A stretch of 64,000 nucleotides of DNA, taken from NCBI RefSeq assembly GCF_013122565.1, contig NZ_CP053258.1; one strand, given 5' to 3'. Positions 22,787 to 40,941 of the stretch are shown piece after piece. The position numbers and the translations under genes were made by a program. The notes beneath the pieces were generated by a model that saw only the letters and a program-made list of their open reading frames with translations, searched no databases and was not told the DNA's origin. Positions within the stretch are counted from its first letter, which is position 1; each line of letters starts with the position of its first letter. This DNA comes from Escherichia coli (GTDB lineage: Bacteria > Pseudomonadota > Gammaproteobacteria > Enterobacterales > Enterobacteriaceae).

Positions 22787-25186
22787 ATGAAGCTAACCGA
22801 TGCGGATAATGCCGCCGATGGCATTTTTTTCCCCGCCCTTGAGCAAAATATGATGGGTGCGGTGTTAATTAACGAAAATGATGAAGTGATGTTTTTCAAC
22901 CCCGCCGCAGAGAAGCTCTGGGGGTACAAACGTGAAGAAGTCATTGGCAATAACATTGATATGCTGATTCCGCGGGATTTGCGTCCTGCGCATCCTGAAT
23001 ACATTCGTCACAACCGTGAAGGCGGTAAAGCGCGCGTCGAGGGGATGAGTCGGGAGCTGCAGCTGGAGAAAAAAGACGGCAGTAAAATCTGGACCCGTTT
23101 TGCGCTATCGAAAGTGAGCGCCGAGGGGAAAGTTTATTACCTGGCGCTGGTACGGGATGCAAGCGTAGAAATGGCGCAAAAAGAACAGACCCGACAATTG
23201 ATTATTGCCGTTGACCATCTCGACCGACCGGTGATTGTCCTCGATCCGGAACGCCATATTGTGCAGTGCAATCGCGCATTTACCGAAATGTTTGGTTACT
23301 GCATTAGCGAAGCCAGCGGTATGCAGCCCGATACACTCCTGAACATTCCTGAATTCCCTGCCGATAACCGCATTCGTTTACAACAGTTGCTATGGAAAAC
23401 CGCCCGCGATCAGGACGAATTTCTGCTGTTGACGCGCACCGGTGAAAAAATCTGGATTAAAGCCTCTATCAGCCCTGTTTATGACGTGCTCGCGCATCTG
23501 CAGAACCTGGTAATGACCTTCTCGGATATCACCGAAGAACGGCAAATCCGCCAGCTTGAAGGCAATATTCTCGCCGCCATGTGCAGCAGCCCGCCATTTC
23601 ATGAAATGGGGGAAATCATTTGTCGTAACATCGAATCTGTTCTCAACGAATCGCATGTTTCGCTGTTCGCACTGCGCAACGGGATGCCGATACACTGGGC
23701 GTCATCTTCGCACGGTGCAGAAGTTCAAAATGCGCAAAGCTGGTCAGCGACCATTCGTCAGCGTGATGGCGCGCCTGCGGGGATCCTGCAAATTAAAACC
23801 TCGTCAGGAGCAGAAACCAGCGCCTTTATCGAACGCGTGGCAGATATCAGCCAGCATATGGCCGCGCTGGCGCTGGAACAGGAAAAAAGCCGTCAGCATA
23901 TTGAACAACTCATCCAATTTGATCCGATGACCGGTCTGCCAAATCGCAATAACCTGCACAATTACCTCGATGACCTGGTCGACAAAGCCGTCTCTCCGGT
24001 GGTGTATCTCATCGGTGTTGACCATATTCAGGATGTGATTGATAGCCTTGGCTATGCGTGGGCCGATCAGGCATTGCTGGAAGTGGTCAATCGCTTTCGT
24101 GAAAAACTCAAACCGGATCAGTATCTCTGTCGTATCGAAGGTACGCAGTTTGTCCTCGTGAGCCTGGAAAACGACGTCAGTAACATTACCCAAATCGCCG
24201 ATGAGCTACGGAATGTGGTCAGCAAGCCGATAATGATTGACGATAAACCCTTCCCGCTTACCTTGAGTATTGGCATCAGCTACGACGTGGGTAAAAACCG
24301 CGATTACCTGCTCTCCACTGCTCACAATGCAATGGATTATATTCGCAAGAATGGGGGTAACGGCTGGCAGTTCTTCAGCCCGGCGATGAACGAAATGGTA
24401 AAAGAGCGTTTGGTTTTAGGCGCAGCGCTGAAAGAAGCGATTAGCAATAACCAACTGAAACTGGTTTACCAGCCGCAAATCTTCGCAGAAACGGGTGAAC
24501 TGTACGGCATCGAAGCCCTTGCTCGCTGGCACGATCCCCTGCATGGTCATGTGCCCCCTTCACGGTTTATTCCTCTCGCAGAAGAGATTGGTGAAATCGA
24601 AAATATTGGGCGCTGGGTCATCGCGGAAGCTTGCCGTCAGTTAGCAGAATGGCGTAGCCAGAATATTCATATCCCGGCGCTTTCCGTTAACTTGTCGGCA
24701 CTGCACTTTCGCAGTAATCAACTGCCTAATCAGGTGTCTGATGCAATGCAAGCCTGGGGTATTGACGGCCACCAGCTGACGGTAGAAATCACGGAAAGCA
24801 TGATGATGGAACACGATACCGAAATCTTTAAGCGCATTCAGATCCTGCGTGATATGGGCGTCGGCTTATCGGTAGATGATTTTGGCACGGGCTTTTCCGG
24901 ATTATCCCGCTTAGTCAGTCTTCCGGTAACGGAAATCAAAATTGACAAAAGTTTTGTCGATCGTTGTCTTGCGGAAAAACGCATCCTTGCCTTACTTGAA
25001 GCCATTACCAGCATTGGGCAAAGCCTCAATTTAACCGTCGTGGCGGAAGGCGTCGAAACCAAAGAGCAATTTGAGATGCTACGCAAGATCCACTGTCGCG
25101 TTATTCAGGGATATTTCTTTTCCCGTCCCCTGCCCGCCGAAGAAATTCCAGGCTGGATGAGCAGCGTGTTACCGCTGAAAATCTGA
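22787..25186 (+). CDS. dosP: Heme-regulated c-di-GMP phosphodiesterase DosP, 799 aa
   Basis: ATG at 22787 (track ORF starts 8 codons earlier); PAS domains, degenerate GGDEF, EAL domain (EALARW). Confidence 0.95.
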   Translation: MKLTDADNAADGIFFPALEQNMMGAVLINENDEVMFFNPAAEKLWGYKREEVIGNNIDMLIPRDLRPAHPEYIRHNREGGKARVEGMSRELQLEKKDGSKIWTRFALSKVSAEGKVYYLALVRDASVEMAQKEQTRQLIIAVDHLDRPVIVLDPERHIVQCNRAFTEMFGYCISEASGMQPDTLLNIPEFPADNRIRLQQLLWKTARDQDEFLLLTRTGEKIWIKASISPVYDVLAHLQNLVMTFSDITEERQIRQLEGNILAAMCSSPPFHEMGEIICRNIESVLNESHVSLFALRNGMPIHWASSSHGAEVQNAQSWSATIRQRDGAPAGILQIKTSSGAETSAFIERVADISQHMAALALEQEKSRQHIEQLIQFDPMTGLPNRNNLHNYLDDLVDKAVSPVVYLIGVDHIQDVIDSLGYAWADQALLEVVNRFREKLKPDQYLCRIEGTQFVLVSLENDVSNITQIADELRNVVSKPIMIDDKPFPLTLSIGISYDVGKNRDYLLSTAHNAMDYIRKNGGNGWQFFSPAMNEMVKERLVLGAALKEAISNNQLKLVYQPQIFAETGELYGIEALARWHDPLHGHVPPSRFIPLAEEIGEIENIGRWVIAEACRQLAEWRSQNIHIPALSVNLSALHFRSNQLPNQVSDAMQAWGIDGHQLTVEITESMMMEHDTEIFKRIQILRDMGVGLSVDDFGTGFSGLSRLVSLPVTEIKIDKSFVDRCLAEKRILALLEAITSIGQSLNLTVVAEGVETKEQFEMLRKIHCRVIQGYFFSRPLPAEEIPGWMSSVLPLKI

Positions 25187-25199
25187 CAAATTCCTCTCG

Positions 25200-25220
25200 C
25201 CCGCACTCGCGGGTTTTCAT
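25200..25220 (+). terminator. Rho-independent terminator after dosP
   Basis: cccgc / actc / gcggg followed by ttttcattt. Confidence 0.6.
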
Positions 25221-25383
25221 TTAACGTGACACTGTCACTTAAATACTGTGATTTCAGCTACGATTCCGGGAGATTCCTTCCTTAACTTCCCCTCTTGCAC
25301 CAAAACTGCACTACGCTGCACAAATGTTGATCAAAAGTTAAAAAATATAACTTTAAGCCAGCATTCTGGCGCTTATCCCGGCA

Positions 25384-25400
25384 TGGCATGAGATCTGCAT
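25384..25400 (+). promoter_or_regulatory. Candidate sigma-54 (-24/-12) promoter upstream of ddpX
   Basis: TGGCATG-agat-CTGCAT: GG and GC separated by 10 nt, about 45 nt upstream of the ddpX ATG. Confidence 0.6.
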
Positions 25401-25443
25401 AAGCGGAAAGCGCAGCAATTTTTGTCTTATACAGGAACCGTTT

Positions 25444-26025
25444 ATGTCGGATACCACCGAACTGGTTGATTTAGCCGTGATCTTCCCTGATCTGGAGATC
25501 GAATTGAAATACGCCTGCGCTGATAACATCACAGGTAAAGCTATTTACCAGCAAGCGCGTTGTCTGTTACACAAGGATGCGATTACCGCGCTGGCGAAAA
25601 GTATCAGTATCGCCCAGCTATCAGGCTTACAACTGGTGATTTACGATGCGTATCGCCCACAACAAGCACAGGCGATGTTGTGGCAAGCCTGCCCAGACCC
25701 GCAATATGTTGTTGATGTGACGGTCGGTTCTAATCACAGCCGTGGCACGGCGCTCGACCTGACGCTTCGTGATGAGCACGGGAACATCCTGGATATGGGC
25801 GCAGGGTTCGATGAAATGCACGAGCGCTCCCATGCCTATCACCCTTCCGTCCCGCCCGCCGCTCAGCGCAATCGCCTGTTGCTGAATGCGATAATGACTG
25901 GTGGCGGTTTTGTCGGTATCTCCAGCGAATGGTGGCACTTCGAATTACCCCAGGCAGCGAGTTACCCTCTGCTCGCTGATCAATTCACCTGTTTTATATC
26001 CCCTGGCACACAGAACGTCAGTTAA
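25444..26025 (+). CDS. ddpX: D-Ala-D-Ala dipeptidase, 193 aa
   Basis: VanX-like sequence (SNHSRGTALDLT, EWWHFE); first gene of the ddp operon. Confidence 0.95.
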   Translation: MSDTTELVDLAVIFPDLEIELKYACADNITGKAIYQQARCLLHKDAITALAKSISIAQLSGLQLVIYDAYRPQQAQAMLWQACPDPQYVVDVTVGSNHSRGTALDLTLRDEHGNILDMGAGFDEMHERSHAYHPSVPPAAQRNRLLLNAIMTGGGFVGISSEWWHFELPQAASYPLLADQFTCFISPGTQNVS

Positions 26026-26038
26026 TCAGGAAACTGTC

Positions 26039-27589
26039 ATGAAGAGATCGATATCGTTTCGTCCCACATTGCTCGCGCTCGTCCTTGCCACAACTTTCCC
26101 GGTTGCGCACGCCGCCGTACCGAAAGATATGCTGGTGATTGGTAAGGCCGCCGATCCACAAACCCTCGACCCGGCAGTAACAATAGATAATAACGACTGG
26201 ACAGTGACCTACCCGTCTTATCAGCGGCTGGTTCAGTACAAAACGGACGGTGATAAAGGCTCAACCGACGTTGAAGGCGATCTGGCAAGTAGCTGGAAAG
26301 CGTCTGACGATCAAAAAGAGTGGACGTTCACCCTGAAAGATAATGCTAAATTTGCCGATGGCACACCTGTCACTGCCGAAGCAGTAAAACTTTCTTTTGA
26401 GCGGCTACTAAAAATCGGCCAGGGGCCAGCAGAAGCATTTCCCAAAGATTTAAAGATTGATGCTCCCGACGAACATACGGTGAAGTTTACCCTTAGCCAA
26501 CCATTCGCACCGTTCCTCTACACGCTGGCGAATGACGGTGCATCCATTATCAATCCGGCGGTCTTAAAGGAACATGCAGCGGATGATGCCCGCGGCTTCC
26601 TCGCGCAAAATACCGCCGGTTCCGGACCATTTATGCTGAAAAGCTGGCAAAAAGGTCAGCAATTAGTTCTGGTGCCAAATCCGCATTACTCCGGCAATAA
26701 ACCGAACTTTAAGCGAGTATCGGTAAAAATTATCGGTGAAAGTGCCTCCCGTCGCCTGCAGCTCTCCCGTGGCGACATTGACATTGCCGATGCGCTGCCG
26801 GTGGATCAACTCAACGCCCTGAAGCAGGAAAATAAAGTCAATGTGGCAGAGTATCCGTCACTGCGCGTCACCTATCTGTATCTGAATAACAGCAAAGCGC
26901 CACTTAATCAGGCGGATCTGCGGCGGGCCATTTCCTGGTCTACCGATTATCAGGGCATGGTTAACGGCATTCTGAGTGGTAACGGAAAACAAATGCGCGG
27001 CCCGATTCCGGAAGGCATGTGGGGCTACGATGCGACGGCAATGCAATACAACCATGACGAAACGAAAGCCAAAGCCGAATGGGATAAAGTGACGAGCAAA
27101 CCCACCAGCCTGACGTTTCTCTACTCCGATAACGACCCGAACTGGGAACCGATCGCTCTGGCGACACAATCCAGTCTCAACAAGCTGGGCATCAATGTGA
27201 AGCTGGAAAAACTGGCGAACGCCACCATGCGCGACAGAGTGGGTAAAGGTGATTACGACATTGCGATTGGCAACTGGAGTCCGGATTTTGCCGACCCGTA
27301 TATGTTTATGAATTACTGGTTTGAGTCAGACAAAAAAGGTCTGCCGGGTAACCGCTCGTTCTATGAAAACAGTGAGGTCGATAAGTTACTGCGCAATGCG
27401 CTTGCGACCACCGACCAGACGCAGCGTACCCGAGACTACCAGCAGGCACAGAAAATCGTCATTGATGACGCTGCTTATGTGTACCTGTTCCAGAAAAACT
27501 ACCAACTGGCGATGAACAAAGAGGTGAAAGGCTTTGTGTTCAATCCCATGCTGGAACAGGTCTTCAATATCAATACCATGAGTAAATAA
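26039..27589 (+). CDS. ddpA: Periplasmic D,D-dipeptide-binding protein, 516 aa
   Basis: ATG at 26039 (track ORF begins upstream inside ddpX on an alternative start); signal peptide; SBP family 5. Confidence 0.93.
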   Translation: MKRSISFRPTLLALVLATTFPVAHAAVPKDMLVIGKAADPQTLDPAVTIDNNDWTVTYPSYQRLVQYKTDGDKGSTDVEGDLASSWKASDDQKEWTFTLKDNAKFADGTPVTAEAVKLSFERLLKIGQGPAEAFPKDLKIDAPDEHTVKFTLSQPFAPFLYTLANDGASIINPAVLKEHAADDARGFLAQNTAGSGPFMLKSWQKGQQLVLVPNPHYSGNKPNFKRVSVKIIGESASRRLQLSRGDIDIADALPVDQLNALKQENKVNVAEYPSLRVTYLYLNNSKAPLNQADLRRAISWSTDYQGMVNGILSGNGKQMRGPIPEGMWGYDATAMQYNHDETKAKAEWDKVTSKPTSLTFLYSDNDPNWEPIALATQSSLNKLGINVKLEKLANATMRDRVGKGDYDIAIGNWSPDFADPYMFMNYWFESDKKGLPGNRSFYENSEVDKLLRNALATTDQTQRTRDYQQAQKIVIDDAAYVYLFQKNYQLAMNKEVKGFVFNPMLEQVFNINTMSK

Positions 27590-27590
27590 C

Positions 27591-28613
27591 GTGACCTTCT
27601 GGAGTATTTTACGCCAACGCTGCTGGGGGCTGGTGCTCGTTGTGGCGGGCGTCTGCGTGATTACGTTTATTATCTCACATCTGATCCCTGGTGATCCGGC
27701 TCGGTTACTGGCGGGTGACCGCGCCAGCGATGCTATCGTGGAAAATATTCGCCAGCAACTGGGACTGGACCAGCCACTGTATGTACAGTTTTACCGCTAC
27801 GTCAGCGACCTGTTTCATGGTGACCTGGGAACATCCATTCGTACTGGGCGTCCGGTGCTGGAAGAGTTGCGTATATTTTTCCCGGCGACGCTGGAGCTGG
27901 CTTTTTGTGCCCTGCTGCTGGCACTCTTGATTGGCATCCCGCTGGGCATACTCTCTGCAGTCTGGCGAAATCGCTGGCTGGATCATCTGGTGCGAATAAT
28001 GGCGATTACCGGAATCTCCACACCTGCGTTCTGGCTTGGGCTGGGCGTCATCGTGCTGTTTTATGGTCATCTGCAAATACTTCCCGGCGGCGGAAGGCTT
28101 GATGACTGGCTGGATCCACCAACGCACGTTACCGGCTTTTATCTGCTCGATGCGTTGCTTGAAGGCAACGGTGAAGTCTTCTTCAATGCGTTGCAACATC
28201 TCATCTTACCGGCATTAACGCTGGCGTTTGTTCACCTGGGAATTGTCGCCCGCCAGATCCGTTCAGCGATGCTGGAACAATTGAGTGAAGACTACATTCG
28301 TACCGCCCGGGCCAGCGGCTTGCCCGGCTGGTATATCGTTCTATGTTATGCGCTACCCAATGCGTTGATCCCCTCGATTACCGTATTGGGTCTGGCACTG
28401 GGCGATTTGTTGTATGGCGCAGTGCTCACCGAAACCGTTTTTGCCTGGCCCGGAATGGGGGCATGGGTAGTGACATCAATACAGGCGCTCGACTTCCCTG
28501 CGGTGATGGGATTTGCCGTCGTGGTTTCATTTGCTTATGTGCTGGTGAACCTGGTAGTGGATTTGCTCTATTTGTGGATTGATCCGCGTATCGGACGTGG
28601 AGGTGATGAATGA
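27591..28613 (+). CDS. ddpB: D,D-dipeptide ABC permease, 340 aa
   Basis: DppB-like integral membrane protein. Confidence 0.93.
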   Translation: MTFWSILRQRCWGLVLVVAGVCVITFIISHLIPGDPARLLAGDRASDAIVENIRQQLGLDQPLYVQFYRYVSDLFHGDLGTSIRTGRPVLEELRIFFPATLELAFCALLLALLIGIPLGILSAVWRNRWLDHLVRIMAITGISTPAFWLGLGVIVLFYGHLQILPGGGRLDDWLDPPTHVTGFYLLDALLEGNGEVFFNALQHLILPALTLAFVHLGIVARQIRSAMLEQLSEDYIRTARASGLPGWYIVLCYALPNALIPSITVLGLALGDLLYGAVLTETVFAWPGMGAWVVTSIQALDFPAVMGFAVVVSFAYVLVNLVVDLLYLWIDPRIGRGGDE

Positions 28614-29506
28614 TGCTAAGCGAGGAAACGTCCGCCGTACGCCCAGCAAAACAAACGCGATTTAACGGTGCAAAACTGGTATGGATGCTGAAAGGCAGTC
28701 CGCTCACCGTGACCGGCGCAGTCATCATTGTATTAATGCTATTGATGATGATTTTTTCACCGTGGCTGGCGACGCATGATCCCAACGCCATTGATTTAAC
28801 CGCCCGCCTTTTACCGCCTTCTGCGGCGCACTGGTTTGGCACCGATGAAGTGGGACGCGATCTGTTCAGCCGCGTACTGGTCGGCAGTCAGCAATCAATT
28901 CTCGCCGGATTAGTGGTGGTCGCCATTGCGGGTATGATTGGTTCGCTACTCGGATGTCTATCCGGTTTGCTTGGCGGACGCGCAGACGCCATCATCATGC
29001 GCATCATGGACATTATGCTGTCGATTCCTTCGTTGGTACTGACAATGGCACTGGCTGCCGCTCTCGGGCCGAGTTTATTTAACGCCATGCTGGCGATTGC
29101 AATTGTGCGAATTCCCTTTTATGTGCGCCTGGCGCGGGGGCAAGCATTAGTTGTACGCCAGTATACCTATGTTCAGGCGGCGAAAACCTTTGGTGCGTCG
29201 CGTTGGCATCTGATCAGCTGGCATATTTTACGTAACTCCCTGCCGCCGCTGATCGTGCAGGCATCGCTGGATATCGGTAGCGCGATTTTAATGGCCGCCA
29301 CGTTGGGATTTATTGGCCTGGGTGCTCAACAACCGAGTGCTGAATGGGGCGCGATGGTAGCGAATGGTCGCAACTATGTACTCGATCAGTGGTGGTATTG
29401 CGCATTTCCGGGGGCAGCGATTTTGCTTACCGCCGTCGGGTTTAATCTCTTTGGTGATGGTATTCGCGATCTGCTTGACCCGAAAGCAGGAGAAAAGCAG
29501 TCATGA
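28610..29506 (+). CDS. ddpC: D,D-dipeptide ABC permease, 298 aa
   Basis: DppC-like; 4-nt overlap with ddpB. Confidence 0.93.
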   Translation: MMLSEETSAVRPAKQTRFNGAKLVWMLKGSPLTVTGAVIIVLMLLMMIFSPWLATHDPNAIDLTARLLPPSAAHWFGTDEVGRDLFSRVLVGSQQSILAGLVVVAIAGMIGSLLGCLSGLLGGRADAIIMRIMDIMLSIPSLVLTMALAAALGPSLFNAMLAIAIVRIPFYVRLARGQALVVRQYTYVQAAKTFGASRWHLISWHILRNSLPPLIVQASLDIGSAILMAATLGFIGLGAQQPSAEWGAMVANGRNYVLDQWWYCAFPGAAILLTAVGFNLFGDGIRDLLDPKAGEKQS

Positions 29507-30489
29507 CCCAACCCGTTCTGGACATCCAACAACTGCATTTGAGTTTCCCCGGTTTTAACGGTGATGTTCACGCGCTCAACAATGTGTCCTTGCAGATTAA
29601 CCGCGGTGAAATTGTCGGTCTGGTGGGAGAATCCGGCTCAGGTAAATCAGTCACCGCAATGCTGATTATGCGTCTGCTACCGACGGGCAGTTATTGCGTA
29701 CATCGGGGGCAGATTTCCCTGCTGGGAGAAGATGTTCTTAACGCGCGGGAAAAACAGCTTCGTCAGTGGCGCGGCGCACGAGTGGCGATGATCTTTCAGG
29801 AACCGATGACCGCCCTCAATCCAACACGTCGAATAGGTCTTCAGATGATGGACGTGATCCGCCATCATCAACCAATAAGTCGTCGGGAAGCCAAAGCTAA
29901 AGCGATTGCCTTGCTGGAAGAGATGCAAATCCCGGATGCCGTGGAAGTTATGTCGCGCTATCCGTTTGAGCTTTCAGGTGGTATGCGCCAGCGGGTAATG
30001 ATTGCATTGGCATTCTCCTGCGAGCCGCAATTGATTATTGCCGACGAACCGACGACGGCGCTGGACGTCACAGTACAGTTGCAGGTACTGCGTTTGCTTA
30101 AACATAAAGCCCGCGCCAGTGGAACTGCGGTACTGTTCATCAGCCATGATATGGCCGTGGTGTCGCAACTGTGCGATAGCGTTTACGTGATGTATGCCGG
30201 AAGCGTAATTGAAAGCGGCGGGACGGCAGACGTTATCCATCATCCCCGGCATCCGTATACCATTGGTTTGCTGCAATGCGCACCAGAACATGGAGTACCA
30301 CGCCAGCCATTACCCGCCATTCCAGGGACGGTACCAAACCTCACCCATTTGCCTGACGGCTGCGCTTTTCGCGATCGTTGCTATGCGGCAGGTGCACAGT
30401 GTGAAAACGTCCCGGCGCTGACAGCGTGTGGTGACAACAACCAGCGCTGCGCCTGTTGGTATCCGCAGCAGGAGGTCATAAGTGTCTGA
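29503..30489 (+). CDS. ddpD: D,D-dipeptide ABC ATPase, 328 aa
   Basis: Walker A GESGSGKS, signature LSGGMRQR. Confidence 0.93.
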   Translation: MTQPVLDIQQLHLSFPGFNGDVHALNNVSLQINRGEIVGLVGESGSGKSVTAMLIMRLLPTGSYCVHRGQISLLGEDVLNAREKQLRQWRGARVAMIFQEPMTALNPTRRIGLQMMDVIRHHQPISRREAKAKAIALLEEMQIPDAVEVMSRYPFELSGGMRQRVMIALAFSCEPQLIIADEPTTALDVTVQLQVLRLLKHKARASGTAVLFISHDMAVVSQLCDSVYVMYAGSVIESGGTADVIHHPRHPYTIGLLQCAPEHGVPRQPLPAIPGTVPNLTHLPDGCAFRDRCYAAGAQCENVPALTACGDNNQRCACWYPQQEVISV

Positions 30490-31408
30490 CACGTTATTAA
30501 CGTTACGCGACGTCCATATCAATTTTCCGGCCCGTAAAAACTGGCTTGGTAAAACTACGGAATATGTTCATGCCATTAATGGTATTGATTTACAGATCCG
30601 CCGTGGTGAAACCTTAGGGATCGTCGGTGAGTCAGGCTGCGGCAAAAGCACCCTCGCACAGCTTTTAATGGGCATGCTGCAACCGAGCCACGGGCAGTAC
30701 ATCCGTTCAGGCTCGCAACGCATTATGCAGATGGTGTTTCAGGACCCGCTCTCTTCGCTTAATCCGCGCTTACCGGTGTGGCGCATCATCACTGAACCGC
30801 TCTGGATAGCTAAGCGTAGTAGTGAACAACAGCGGCGAGCGTTGGCAGAGGAGCTGGCTGTGCAGGTGGGTATTCGTCCGGAGTATCTCGACCGCCTGCC
30901 TCATGCGTTCTCCGGCGGGCAGCGGCAACGCATCGCCATTGCCAGAGCACTCTCTTCGCAGCCTGACGTGATTGTGCTTGATGAACCGACCTCGGCGCTG
31001 GATATCTCCGTGCAGGCGCAGATCCTCAATTTACTGGTAACGCTACAGGAAAATCACGGGCTGACTTATGTGCTGATTTCACACAATGTCTCGGTGATAC
31101 GTCATATGAGCGATCGGGTGGCGGTGATGTATCTCGGGCAGATTGTGGAACTAGGGGAAACGCAACAGGTGCTGACTGCTCCGGCACATCCATACACCCG
31201 ATTATTGCTGGATTCCCTCCCCGCCATTGATAAACCACTGGAGGAAGAATGGGCATTACGTAAAACGGATCTACCGGGAAACCGCACGTTGCCGCAAGGC
31301 TGTTTTTTCTACGAACGTTGCCCTCTGGCAACCCACGGATGTGAAGTCCGGCAATCATTAGCAATAAGGGAGGACGGACGTGAGCTCCGGTGCTGGCGGG
31401 CGCTGTAG
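30482..31408 (+). CDS. ddpF: D,D-dipeptide ABC ATPase, 308 aa
   Basis: Walker A GESGCGKST, signature FSGGQRQR. Confidence 0.93.
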   Translation: MSDTLLTLRDVHINFPARKNWLGKTTEYVHAINGIDLQIRRGETLGIVGESGCGKSTLAQLLMGMLQPSHGQYIRSGSQRIMQMVFQDPLSSLNPRLPVWRIITEPLWIAKRSSEQQRRALAEELAVQVGIRPEYLDRLPHAFSGGQRQRIAIARALSSQPDVIVLDEPTSALDISVQAQILNLLVTLQENHGLTYVLISHNVSVIRHMSDRVAVMYLGQIVELGETQQVLTAPAHPYTRLLLDSLPAIDKPLEEEWALRKTDLPGNRTLPQGCFFYERCPLATHGCEVRQSLAIREDGRELRCWRAL

Positions 31409-31463
31409 AGATGCTAACAACGCATTAGGCATTCACGCGCCTGACGCGTCATCCGACAATGCT

Positions 31464-31895
31464 TTACGATTTCAACTGGTAATCCAGCGTAATTTCCGCT
31501 TTCAGTACCTGAGAGACCGGGCATCCTGCTTTTGCTTTCTGGATGATGCCGTCAAAGGTAGAGGCATCAATACCCGGCACCGCAATTTCACTCTTCAGTG
31601 CGATTTTCGTAATCGCAAAACCGGCATCCACTTTATCCAGCGACACATCGGCGGTGGTATCAATCGATGTTGGCGTGAATCCTGCTTCTCCCAGCATTAA
31701 TGAAAGCGCCATTGAGAAACATGCGGCATGTGCTGCGCCAATCAGTTCTTCAGGGTTGGTTCCTTTTTCGCCTTCAAAACGCGTGTTAAATCCATACGGC
31801 TGTTGGTTCAGCACGCCACTCTCGGTGGATACTGTTCCCTTCCCGCGTTTGATATCGCCTTCCCAGTGTGCCTGACCTTTCTTATGGATTGTCAT
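31464..31895 (-). CDS. osmC: Osmotically inducible peroxiredoxin OsmC, 143 aa
   Basis: Full-length match to OsmC (MTIHKKGQAHWEGDIKRGKGTVSTESG...). Confidence 0.96.
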   Translation of the reverse strand: MTIHKKGQAHWEGDIKRGKGTVSTESGVLNQQPYGFNTRFEGEKGTNPEELIGAAHAACFSMALSLMLGEAGFTPTSIDTTADVSLDKVDAGFAITKIALKSEIAVPGIDASTFDGIIQKAKAGCPVSQVLKAEITLDYQLKS

Positions 31896-37893: not shown

Positions 37894-40800
37894 TTACGCC
37901 TTCTCGATGTTGACTAAGAACGCTTTATATTCCGGCGTTTGCGAGTTTGCATCACCGACATTCGGCGTCAGAGTGTTAGCGATATAACCTTTACGCGCGA
38001 CACCCTCAAAGCCCCAGTGGATCGGAATACCCACCGTTTCAACCTGCTGACCATTTACATTCAGCGGTTTCAGACGGCGCGTTACCACCGCCACCGCGCG
38101 GATAAAGCCACGCTTGCTTGAGACAGTGACACGATCGCCATTATTAATGCCTTTCGCCGCCGCCAGCGTTTCGCTGATTTCCACAAACTGTTCCGGCTGA
38201 GCAATTGCGTTGAGCAACGCGTGCTTGGTCCAGGTGTGGAAGTGCTCGGTCAGACGATAGGTCGTACCCACATACGGGAACTGCTCTTTTTTACCCATCC
38301 GCAGCGCGTCTTGTTCATACAGACGAACGACCGGGTTAGACACCACGTTCGGATGCAGCGGGTTAGTGCCCAGCGGCGTTTCAATCGGCTCGTAGTGTTC
38401 CGGGAACGGACCTTCCGCCATTTTGTTGATGGCAAACAGGCGTCCCATCCCTTCCGGCTGCATGATAAACGGCCCGGTTGGCGTACCCGGTGCGGCATTG
38501 CCGAAGTCCGGAATATCGTTACCCGTCCACTTGCTGCCGTTCCACTGGATCAGCATCCGTTTCGGATCCCACGGTTTACCGTTGATATCCGCCGAAGCAC
38601 GGTTGTAGAGTACGCGACGGTTGAGCGGCCACGCCCAGGCCCATCCCAGCGTATTCCCCAGACCGGACGGGTCGGAGTTATCGCGGTTAGCCATCTGGTT
38701 GCCCTGCTCTGTCCAGCTACCGGTGTAGATCCAGCAAGAAGATGCGGTTGTACCGTCATCACGCAGATGCGCAAAGCTACTCAGCAACTGACCTTTCTTC
38801 GCAATCAGCACGCCATTTGCGTCATAGAGATCTTCCAGCGCATAGCCGTTGTTCTCTTTTGCCACTTCGTCAGATTGCGGTTCGTGCGGCTGCTTGTAGT
38901 TCCAGCTCATCTTCATCAGCGGTTCTACGCCTTTACCACCTTCGGCCTGGTACAGCTCGCGCAGATGATGGTAGATACCCGCCAGAATTTCGCCGTCGTT
39001 ACGCGCTTCGCCCGGCGCGTCCTGACCTTTCCAGTGCCACTGCAACCAGCGACCGGAGTTAGCGATAGAACCATCTTCTTCGGCAAAGCAGGTCGAAGGC
39101 AGACGGAATACTTCAGTCTGAATAGACGCCGGATCGACATCGTTCGACTCGCCGTGGTTCTGCCAGAAGGTAGAGGTTTCAGTCACCAGCGGATCGATAA
39201 CCACCATGTACTTCAGCTTGCTCAGGCAGCTCACCACTTTGTTTTTGTCCGGGAAGGACGCAACCGGGTTAAAGCCCTGGCAGAAATAACCGGTGACTTT
39301 GCCTTCGTCCATCATGTTGAAATACTTGATGACGTCGTAGGTCTGGTCCCACTTCGGCAGCCAGTCATAGCCCCAGTTGTTCTCTTTCTGCGCGGCATCG
39401 CCATAGAAAGATTTCATCAGGCTAACGAAGAACTTCGGATAGTTGCTCCAGTAGTTCACCTGATCAGCCAGCGTCGCTTTCGGCGTGTTCGCTTCCAGAT
39501 ACGACTGCAAATCAACCTGTTTTTCTGACGGCAGCGTCAGATAACCTGGCAGGCTGGTAGAGAGCAGGCCTAAGTCAGTCAGGCCCTGAATGTTGGAGTG
39601 ACCACGCAATGCGTTCACGCCGCCACCGGCCATACCCATGTTACCGAGCAGCAACTGGATCATCGCCATAGTACGGATGTTCTGCGCACCCACGGTGTGC
39701 TGCGTCCAGCCCAGCGCGTACAGGAAGGTGGTTGTGCGATCCGGTGCGCTGGTGGAGGCCAGCACTTCACACACTTTCAGGAAGTCGGCTTTTGGCGTAC
39801 CGCAGATGTTTTCAACGACGTCCGGCGTGTAGCGGGAAACGTGCGCTTTCAGCAGGTTCCACACACAGCGCGGATGAGTCAGTGTTTCATCGCGTTTCGC
39901 ATAGCCGTTTTCATCGAACTGATAGTTCCAGGACGATTTATCGTATTGCCGTTTTTCAGCGTCGTAGCCGCTGAACAGACCGTCTTCGAAAGCAAAATCA
40001 TCACGCACCAGCAGGCTGGCGTTGGTGTAATGCTTAACATATTCGGCGTTGATTTTGTTGTTTTCGATCAGGTAGCGCAAAACGCCAGACAGGAACGTAA
40101 TGTCCGTACCGGAACGAATAGGTGCGTAAATATCCGCCACAGAAGCGGTACGCGTAAAACGGGGATCGACAACGATCAGGGTTGCATCGTTGTTGTTTTT
40201 CGCTTCCATCGCCCAGCGGAAACCGACGGGATGCGCTTCCGCAGCGTTACCGCCCATTACCATTACGACGTTAGCGTTTTTGATATCCACCCAGTGGTTG
40301 GTCATCGCACCGCGACCAAATGTTGGAGCAAGACTTGCTACCGTTGGTCCGTGTCAGACGCGCGCCTGGTTGTCTACCGCCAGCATCCCGAGGGAGCGGG
40401 CAAATTTCTGGGTCAGCATCCCGGTTTCGTTGCTGGCACCGGAGGCACACAGCATACCGGTAGAAAGCCAACGGTTTACCGTTACGCCCTGCTCGTTCTT
40501 TTCAATAAAGTTAGCGTCACGGTCAGCTTTCATCAGCTTCGCAATACGGGTGAATGCTTCTTCCCAGCTAATGCGCTGCCATTTGTCAGAACCTGGCGCA
40601 CGATATTCCGGGTAGCGCAGACGGTTTTCGCTGTTGACGTAATCCAGCAAACCGGCCCCTTTCGGACACAGCGCACCACGGCTTACCGGATGATCCGGGT
40701 CACCTTCAATGTGATAAATCGCTTCTCTGGCGTTTTTCGCGCCATCACCCAGGCTATACATCAATAGCCCGCAACCTACGGAACAGTATGTGCAGGTGTT

Positions 40801-40941
40801 ACGGATCTCTTTAGCGCGTAATAATTTGTAGTTTCGCGCCTGAGCCAGTGCTTGCTTCGGGGCAAAGCCCAATGCCGCTACTGTTGTTCCAGCCATACCG
40901 CCCGCGCAGATTTTAAAAAATTGTCTGCGACTGACGTCCAT
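37894..40941 (-). CDS. fdnG: Formate dehydrogenase-N alpha subunit, selenoprotein; in-frame UGA (Sec) at 40354-40356, about 1015 aa
   Basis: Two adjacent same-frame minus-strand ORFs (40354..40941 and 37894..40305) separated only by one TGA; Tat signal RRQFFK at the N-terminus; molybdopterin enzyme motifs. Confidence 0.93.
40311..40353 (-). ncRNA. Candidate SECIS stem-loop immediately 3' of the fdnG UGA (mRNA element)
   Basis: mRNA after UGA: CACGGACCAACGGUAGCAAGUCUUGCUCCAACAUUUGGUC, with GACCAA...UUGGUC and GCAAG...CUUGC complementary arms. Confidence 0.6.

Follow-up and report, generated by a model that had tools for sequence, protein, structure and literature searches.

The sigma-54 promoter of the Escherichia coli ddpXABCDF operon: a conserved putative NtrC enhancer block and the apparent loss of a SapR-like regulator in Escherichia

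The -24/-12 element ahead of ddpX in the 64,000-nucleotide stretch of Escherichia coli DNA analysed here, which we call the window, is with very high confidence ddpXp, the sigma-54-dependent, NtrC-activated promoter of the ddpXABCDF operon. It explains why E. coli induces the import and cleavage of D-Ala-D-Ala when nitrogen is exhausted. A sigma-54/NtrC promoter of ddpX is already published, so the motif itself is not a new finding, and as textbook-level biology of the NtrC regulon its confirmation adds little. What is new here is modest: a SapR-like regulator gene lies between the promoter and ddpX in most of the Enterobacterales loci compared, and appears to have been lost in Escherichia. 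The comparison provides what looks like a small, clean case of regulatory rewiring by deletion, in which a dedicated regulator and its presumed operator are lost while the sigma-54 promoter and enhancer are kept, and a literature search found no earlier description of such a rewiring of Escherichia ddp.

The genes of the locus run gadC-digH-dosC-dosP-ddpXABCDF in the RefSeq annotation of matching genomes, and the region matches dosP, ddpX and ddpA in 5,398 of 5,426 complete E. coli genomes. The operon has the makeup of the DdpX/VanX type, with a D-alanyl-D-alanine dipeptidase first and a dipeptide-type ABC transporter following it. The permease gene ddpC reaches 619 bits against a cut-off of 434 for the D,D-dipeptide permease equivalog NF007376, the other ddp transporter genes match dipeptide/oligopeptide ABC families, and DosP matches its own equivalog. 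The features on which the argument depends are the following.

25199..25214 (+), terminator-like hairpin GCCCGC-ACTC-GCGGGT with a T-rich tail, just past the dosP stop, from a terminator scan
25296..25312 (+), putative upstream activator site A, TGCACCAAAACTGCACT, with a perfect left NtrC half-site and a degenerate right half
25317..25333 (+), putative upstream activator site B, TGCACAAATGTTGATCA, the best full-length NtrC-box match, 10/14
25296..25341 (+), whole conserved enhancer block, 46 bp, including an invariant GTTAA at 25337-25341
25383..25399 (+), sigma-54 (RpoN) -24/-12 promoter element ATGGCATGAGATCTGCA, from the pattern, the weight matrix, the published ChIP-seq site OS16 and cross-genus invariance
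25410 (+), predicted transcription start, placed 19 nt past the motif centre (25391) by the rule of PMC4591121, giving a 34-nt leader
25412..25443 (+), 3' part of the leader, aligning with the last codons of the SapR-like regulator and the ddpX ribosome-binding site (AGGA at 25433-25436) of other genera
25444..26025 (+), ddpX, D-alanyl-D-alanine dipeptidase, 193 aa (NF007557, 333 bits against a cut-off of 176)
26039..31408 (+), ddpA, ddpB, ddpC, ddpD and ddpF, D,D-dipeptide ABC transporter, all reading frames intact

The dosP hairpin folds as RNA at -11.4 kcal/mol (z = -2.75) with a stem of only 6 bp and an interrupted T tract, and from its sequence it may partly insulate ddp from dosCP transcription. 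A promoter scan detected no sigma-70-like promoter in 25100-25500. Just after the terminator, at 25221-25243, there is a near-perfect palindrome, TTAACGTGACA-C-TGTCACTTAAA, which is Escherichia-specific and is kept in strains that have no ddp genes. The cassette 25263-31419, comprising the enhancer, the sigma-54 promoter and ddpXABCDF, is missing in one piece from about 22% of the complete E. coli genomes; in Nissle 1917, which has no ddp cassette, only 68 bp of unrelated sequence separate dosP from osmC.

The plus strand at 25384-25400 reads TGGCATGAGATCTGCAT, with GG at 25385-25386 and GC at 25397-25398 exactly 10 nt apart, which is the GG-N10-GC spacing that the original prediction had taken as the mark of an RpoN promoter. 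The distance to ddpX, put there at about 45 nt, is 43 nt when measured from the end of 25384-25400 to the ATG at 25444, and 44 nt from the end of the 17-mer at 25383-25399. Set against the extended consensus TGGCACG-N4-TTGCW, the sequence TGGCATG-AGAT-CTGCA has 2 differences, each one pyrimidine for another. The pattern TGGCAYG-N4-YTGCW occurs a single time on both strands of the 64 kb, where 0.08 occurrences are expected and 8 of 100 shuffles contained a match. Because the strict sigma-54 consensus with 2 mismatches allowed was uninformative, giving 10 matches against 12.2 expected in the window, we used the degenerate pattern and a weight matrix in its place. The matrix draws on the intergenic sigma-54 ChIP-seq sites that Bonocora et al. 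2015 list in their Table 1 (PMC4591121), 41 of them once that of ddpX is left out, and it gives the 17-mer at 25383-25399 a score of 15.9 bits, which ranks second among about 128,000 window positions on either strand. By the same measure the ddpX element is mid-range among ChIP-bound sites, being 23rd of the 42 published intergenic ones, so that the predicted RpoN promoter scores as a bound site does. Simulated 64-kb sequences reach at least 15.9 bits by chance a mean of 0.57 times, hence the sequence alone is suggestive and not decisive; function is settled by the intergenic position, the correct orientation toward ddpX with a predicted start 34 nt before the ATG, the cross-genus conservation and the published binding data.

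Two other high scores in the window give an impression of what the matrix finds. Its top match is CTGGCACTACCGTTGCA at 52705-52721 (+), inside narY, with 17.2 bits; the identical sequence has been published as IS19, an intragenic site of sigma-54 ChIP-seq, from which we conclude that the matrix detects real sites. The other is TTGGCGTGAATCCTGCT at 31670-31686 (+), antisense within osmC, with 15.8 bits. The K-12 counterpart of the osmC motif has CCCGCT at the -12 position and 10.9 bits, a strain-specific SNP creating the TGC, and the match in osmC is probably due to chance.

The dosP-ddpX spacer of 257 bp is base-for-base identical to that of K-12 MG1655, in a surrounding 15 kb that is 98.2% identical, and for this reason experiments in K-12 apply directly. 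For that identical sequence, sigma-54 and NtrC occupancy, binding of both in vitro, and strong induction on nitrogen depletion have been shown in the literature. The same 17-mer is sigma-54 ChIP-seq site OS16 of Bonocora et al. 2015, given as ATGGCATGAGATCTGCA on the ddpX strand with a Fold Above Threshold of 10, a start predicted 19 bp past the centre of the motif and 34 bp from ddpX, and an EcoCyc status of 'predicted' (PMC4591121); the sigma-54 promoter anticipated upstream of the ddp operon is thus one already seen to be bound. Brown et al. 2014 assigned an NtrC ChIP-seq peak to ddpXABCDF (PMC4066584), whose interval in window coordinates is 25363-25443, centred on the promoter and not on the enhancer block, which is within ChIP resolution. 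Shimada et al. 2021 recovered the ddpX/dos spacer by gSELEX with the RpoN holoenzyme, and obtained binary and ternary complexes in gel shifts of a ddpX probe with NtrC and RpoN holoenzyme; by RT-qPCR, ddpX mRNA rose 104-fold on nitrogen depletion, which the authors credit to RpoN and NtrC, treating ddpX as a known target of both after Zimmer et al. 2000 (PMC8743547). That rise, together with the NtrC ChIP-seq peak, bears out the nitrogen-limitation control that had been suggested for the operon. The gel-shift primers map to about 25113-25521, with a few strain differences in the forward primer. Overlapping enhancer site A at 25294-25310, CTTGCACCAAAACTGCA scores 12.8 bits on the sigma-54 matrix despite an absent GG, and might be the source of the extra RpoN-holoenzyme bands on that probe.

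As to base-level detail, we infer the exact start site from the motif, a literature search having found no mapped ddpX 5' end or start site. For ddpX, the supplements of PMC8743547 and PMC4066584 give gel-shift primers but no NtrC-box sequence, a full-text literature search returned no enhancer sequences, and a search for a base-resolution NtrC footprint at ddpX found none in the literature.

In overall plan, ddpXp resembles the other E. coli NtrC/sigma-54 nitrogen-scavenging promoters, glnAp2, glnHp2, astCp, nac, argTp and potFp, with which it has in common a -24/-12 element, a short leader, a transport or catabolic operon downstream, and NtrC sites, putative in ddpXp, roughly 80-150 bp upstream. 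The C ahead of TGC, as in CTGCA, is common to ddpXp, astC, argT and norV. The element is the same as ddpXp of E. coli K-12, which we take to be the entry of that name in EcoCyc/RegulonDB; the promoter is without any difference while the surrounding genes differ by about 1.8%. The NtrC regulon described by Zimmer et al. in 2000 reportedly includes ddpXp. The enhancer of glnAp2 is made of strong dyads, whereas that of ddp consists of two half-degenerate boxes 21 bp apart.

Direct copies of TGCAC start at 25296, 25307 and 25317, with a spacing of 11 and 10 bp. By script count this is the sole triple cluster of TGCAC in the window, whereas such a cluster turned up in 10 of 200 simulated ones; a direct-repeat search of the spacer returned no family, the TGCAC units being too short for it. 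These repeats, at about 25290-25320, had been proposed as NtrC-like half-sites; the repeats are there, and both an NtrC ChIP-seq peak and a gel shift are published. Their assignment as NtrC-type sites is supported, whereas a reading as three equivalent half-sites is not, since they are the left halves of two degenerate 17-bp boxes that lie 21 bp, or two helical turns, apart. The NtrC box consensus, as quoted in PMC8743547, is TGCACCAnnnTGGTGCA, with 14 scored positions. Site A matches 9 of the 14 (5 mismatches) and is centred at about -106 from the predicted start, and site B is centred at about -85. In both boxes only the left half is perfect, and the right halves are non-palindromic.

In alignments with other genera, nearly every position of the enhancer block agrees with the window base at 85-100%, while agreement in the flanking sequence is mostly 0-60%. 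The block hardly varies among Escherichia, Citrobacter, Enterobacter and relatives; in Raoultella, Serratia and Pantoea it lines up with NtrC boxes close to the consensus. Site A is nearly invariant across 13 non-Escherichia sequences and aligns with better palindromes in Pantoea, such as TGCACTAGTGTGATGCA. The 17-mer of site B recurs unchanged in other genera: relative to the promoter 17-mer it sits at -66 in Escherichia, and Citrobacter, Enterobacter and Lelliottia have it at -75 to -78. The position orthologous to it is occupied by near-consensus NtrC boxes elsewhere, TGCACCTTCTTTGTGCA in Raoultella-like genomes, and by near-consensus NtrC dyads, TGCCCAATTGTTGTGCA in Serratia and TGCACGCTTTTTGTGCG in Pluralibacter, these orthologous boxes of other genera matching 11-12 of the 14 consensus positions. 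The dyads in distant genera support NtrC as the activator across the order, and the footprint likely marks the bases that NtrC contacts in E. coli. As base-level candidates for NtrC contacts these positions may be of use, none having been found printed in the literature search. Upstream of the enhancer block, TGTGA at 25247-25251 and CG at 25261-25262 are also invariant across genera, and the former is a possible CRP half-site judging from its letters.

Put together, the promoter would work as follows. Sigma-54 RNA polymerase would bind the -24 GG and -12 GC at 25383-25399 as a closed complex. On nitrogen limitation, phosphorylated NtrC would occupy the degenerate boxes of site A (25296-25312) and site B (25317-25333), which share one face of the helix about 85-106 bp upstream of the start, where it would oligomerise and reach the closed complex by looping across the AT-rich, A-tract-rich spacer. 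Reading by eye for an IHF site (WATCAANNNNTTR) between enhancer and promoter gave no convincing match, and we infer a looping geometry without IHF. ATP would then power the opening of the promoter by NtrC, and the transcript would begin near 25410. The operon takes up D-Ala-D-Ala and splits it to D-alanine, which lets a cell-wall dipeptide be scavenged as a source of nitrogen and carbon.

To see how the promoter is placed elsewhere, one genome per species was scanned, giving 80 Enterobacterales loci that encode DdpX relatives. The present analysis establishes both the quality of the motif and the conservation, from genus to genus, of promoter and enhancer block: in alignments these two are conserved islands in otherwise diverged spacers, with the promoter bases TGGCA-G-N5-TGCAT invariant, and both remain in genera whose upstream neighbour is a gene other than dosP. 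A plus-strand site of at least 12.5 bits falls within 1.1 kb upstream of ddpX in 70 of the 80 loci, as compared with 8 of 80 on the minus strand and 3 of 80 when the 1.1 kb past the start codon is scanned instead, in loci that are related and so do not count as independent events. Only in Escherichia and a few others among the 80 is the motif directly upstream of ddpX itself.

What intervenes in most of the rest is a gene. In 65 of the 80 loci (within L005-L082), a same-strand regulator gene of about 285 aa precedes ddpX, for example at 2061-2988 in L017 and 2046-2986 in L006. The protein is a MurR/RpiR-family member that most resembles SapR (NF046014), with scores of 374-400 bits that are below the 500-bit cut-off of that model. 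Each of these 65 genes is preceded by a sigma-54 motif scoring 12.5 bits or more. A palindrome, TGTTA-N6-TAACA, is also present in 59 of the loci; it starts 1-2 nt past the end of the promoter 17-mer (17 nt past it in Serratia) and spans the predicted start site. The regulator-ddp association is an old one, because SapR also neighbours a dipeptidase/ABC operon in Burkholderia pseudomallei. There, in the sapR / BP1026B_II1040-1045 locus, the RpiR-family SapR adjoins the D-Ala-D-Ala dipeptidase/ABC operon and is required for its expression, the operon ranking with the genes whose expression drops most when sapR is mutated (PMC9884982).

Compared with the sapR-like-ddpXABCDF operons of other Enterobacterales, the E. 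coli operon has a homologous promoter and enhancer and the same dipeptidase and ABC transporter genes. What differs is that Escherichia is without both the palindrome and the regulator gene, and that its enhancer is about 11 bp, one helical turn, closer to the promoter; tblastn found no homologue of the SapR-like regulator anywhere in the 64-kb window. Over its last ~30 nt, the E. coli leader can be aligned to the end (3') of the Citrobacter regulator gene plus the ddpX ribosome-binding site, so this part of the leader looks like a remnant of a deleted regulator gene. The simplest account of these alignments is that the Escherichia lineage lost about 0.9 kb, with both the regulator and the palindrome, and that this loss fused the ancestral promoter to ddpX. 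For the larger history we lean, with some reserve, to an ancestral unit running from the sigma-54 promoter through a sapR-like RpiR-family regulator to ddpXABCDF, with the palindrome over the start, which would have needed both nitrogen limitation (through NtrC) and a specific signal. The Escherichia deletion would then have removed regulator and palindrome and brought the enhancer nearer by one helical turn, with general nitrogen (and RpoS) control alone remaining.

Against the promoter assignment stands the RpoS effect, as ddpX and ddpA are reported to be 39- and 31-fold RpoS-dependent in O157:H7 EDL933, which is left unexplained by a sigma-54 promoter. Read-through from dosCP across the modest terminator is a possibility as its source. 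Taken further, this could mean that the sigma-54 site is bound and of minor effect, with ddp transcription coming mostly from an unrecognised sigma-S/sigma-70 promoter in the spacer or from RpoS-dependent dosCP read-through past 25199-25214. The short, interrupted hairpin there agrees with such an account, as does the fact that many sigma-54 ChIP sites are transcriptionally silent (PMC4591121), and a mapped start site that would contradict it was not found in the literature search. We regard it as highly improbable nonetheless: the 104-fold induction of ddpX mRNA on nitrogen depletion is credited to RpoN and NtrC, the scan of 25100-25500 has no sigma-70-like hexamer pair, and the -24/-12 bases and enhancer are conserved in genera without dosP upstream. 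Transcription independent of sigma-54 is probably an extra stationary-phase input and not a replacement.

A promoter that is sigma-54-dependent could also have its conserved block targeted by an enhancer-binding protein other than NtrC, or by an extra factor such as Nac or CRP. What counts against our assignment of ddpXp to NtrC is that the E. coli boxes are poor, with 4 and 5 mismatches of 14, and look more like three direct TGCAC repeats than dyads; the separate invariant TGTGA at 25247-25251 and a report that ddpX is lower in a cya mutant point in the same direction. On the other hand there is the NtrC ChIP-seq peak at ddpXABCDF, gel shifts show purified NtrC on the ddpX probe and, together with RpoN holoenzyme, in a ternary complex, and site B aligns with the near-consensus NtrC dyads of Raoultella, Serratia and Pluralibacter. 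We hold it very unlikely that the block serves an activator other than NtrC or such an extra factor. A functionless chance match of the -24/-12 motif has practically no probability at all. The 0.57 equally good matches expected per 64 kb, and the similar-scoring motif at 31670 antisense inside osmC, would allow for one, yet in vivo binding to the identical sequence is published, the key bases are invariant across genera where the intervening spacer varies, and the orientation and distance to ddpX are correct. The idea of a chance match is refuted by the ChIP-seq data and the conservation.

Two observations from the survey and the window stand apart from the operon. An Enterobacterales MAG (L040, 2945-2961) and Erwinia endophytica (L076, 2912-2928) have stand-alone ddpX homologues without a transporter, adjoining prepilin-peptidase-dependent genes and having a strong sigma-54 motif 39-72 nt upstream. 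Farther along in the window, an Rfam SECIS_3 element at 40301-40359 (-), scoring 84 bits, lies at the junction of the minus-strand open reading frames 37894-40305 and 40354-40941, as would fit a selenocysteine UGA within a gene for formate dehydrogenase, by map position probably fdnG.
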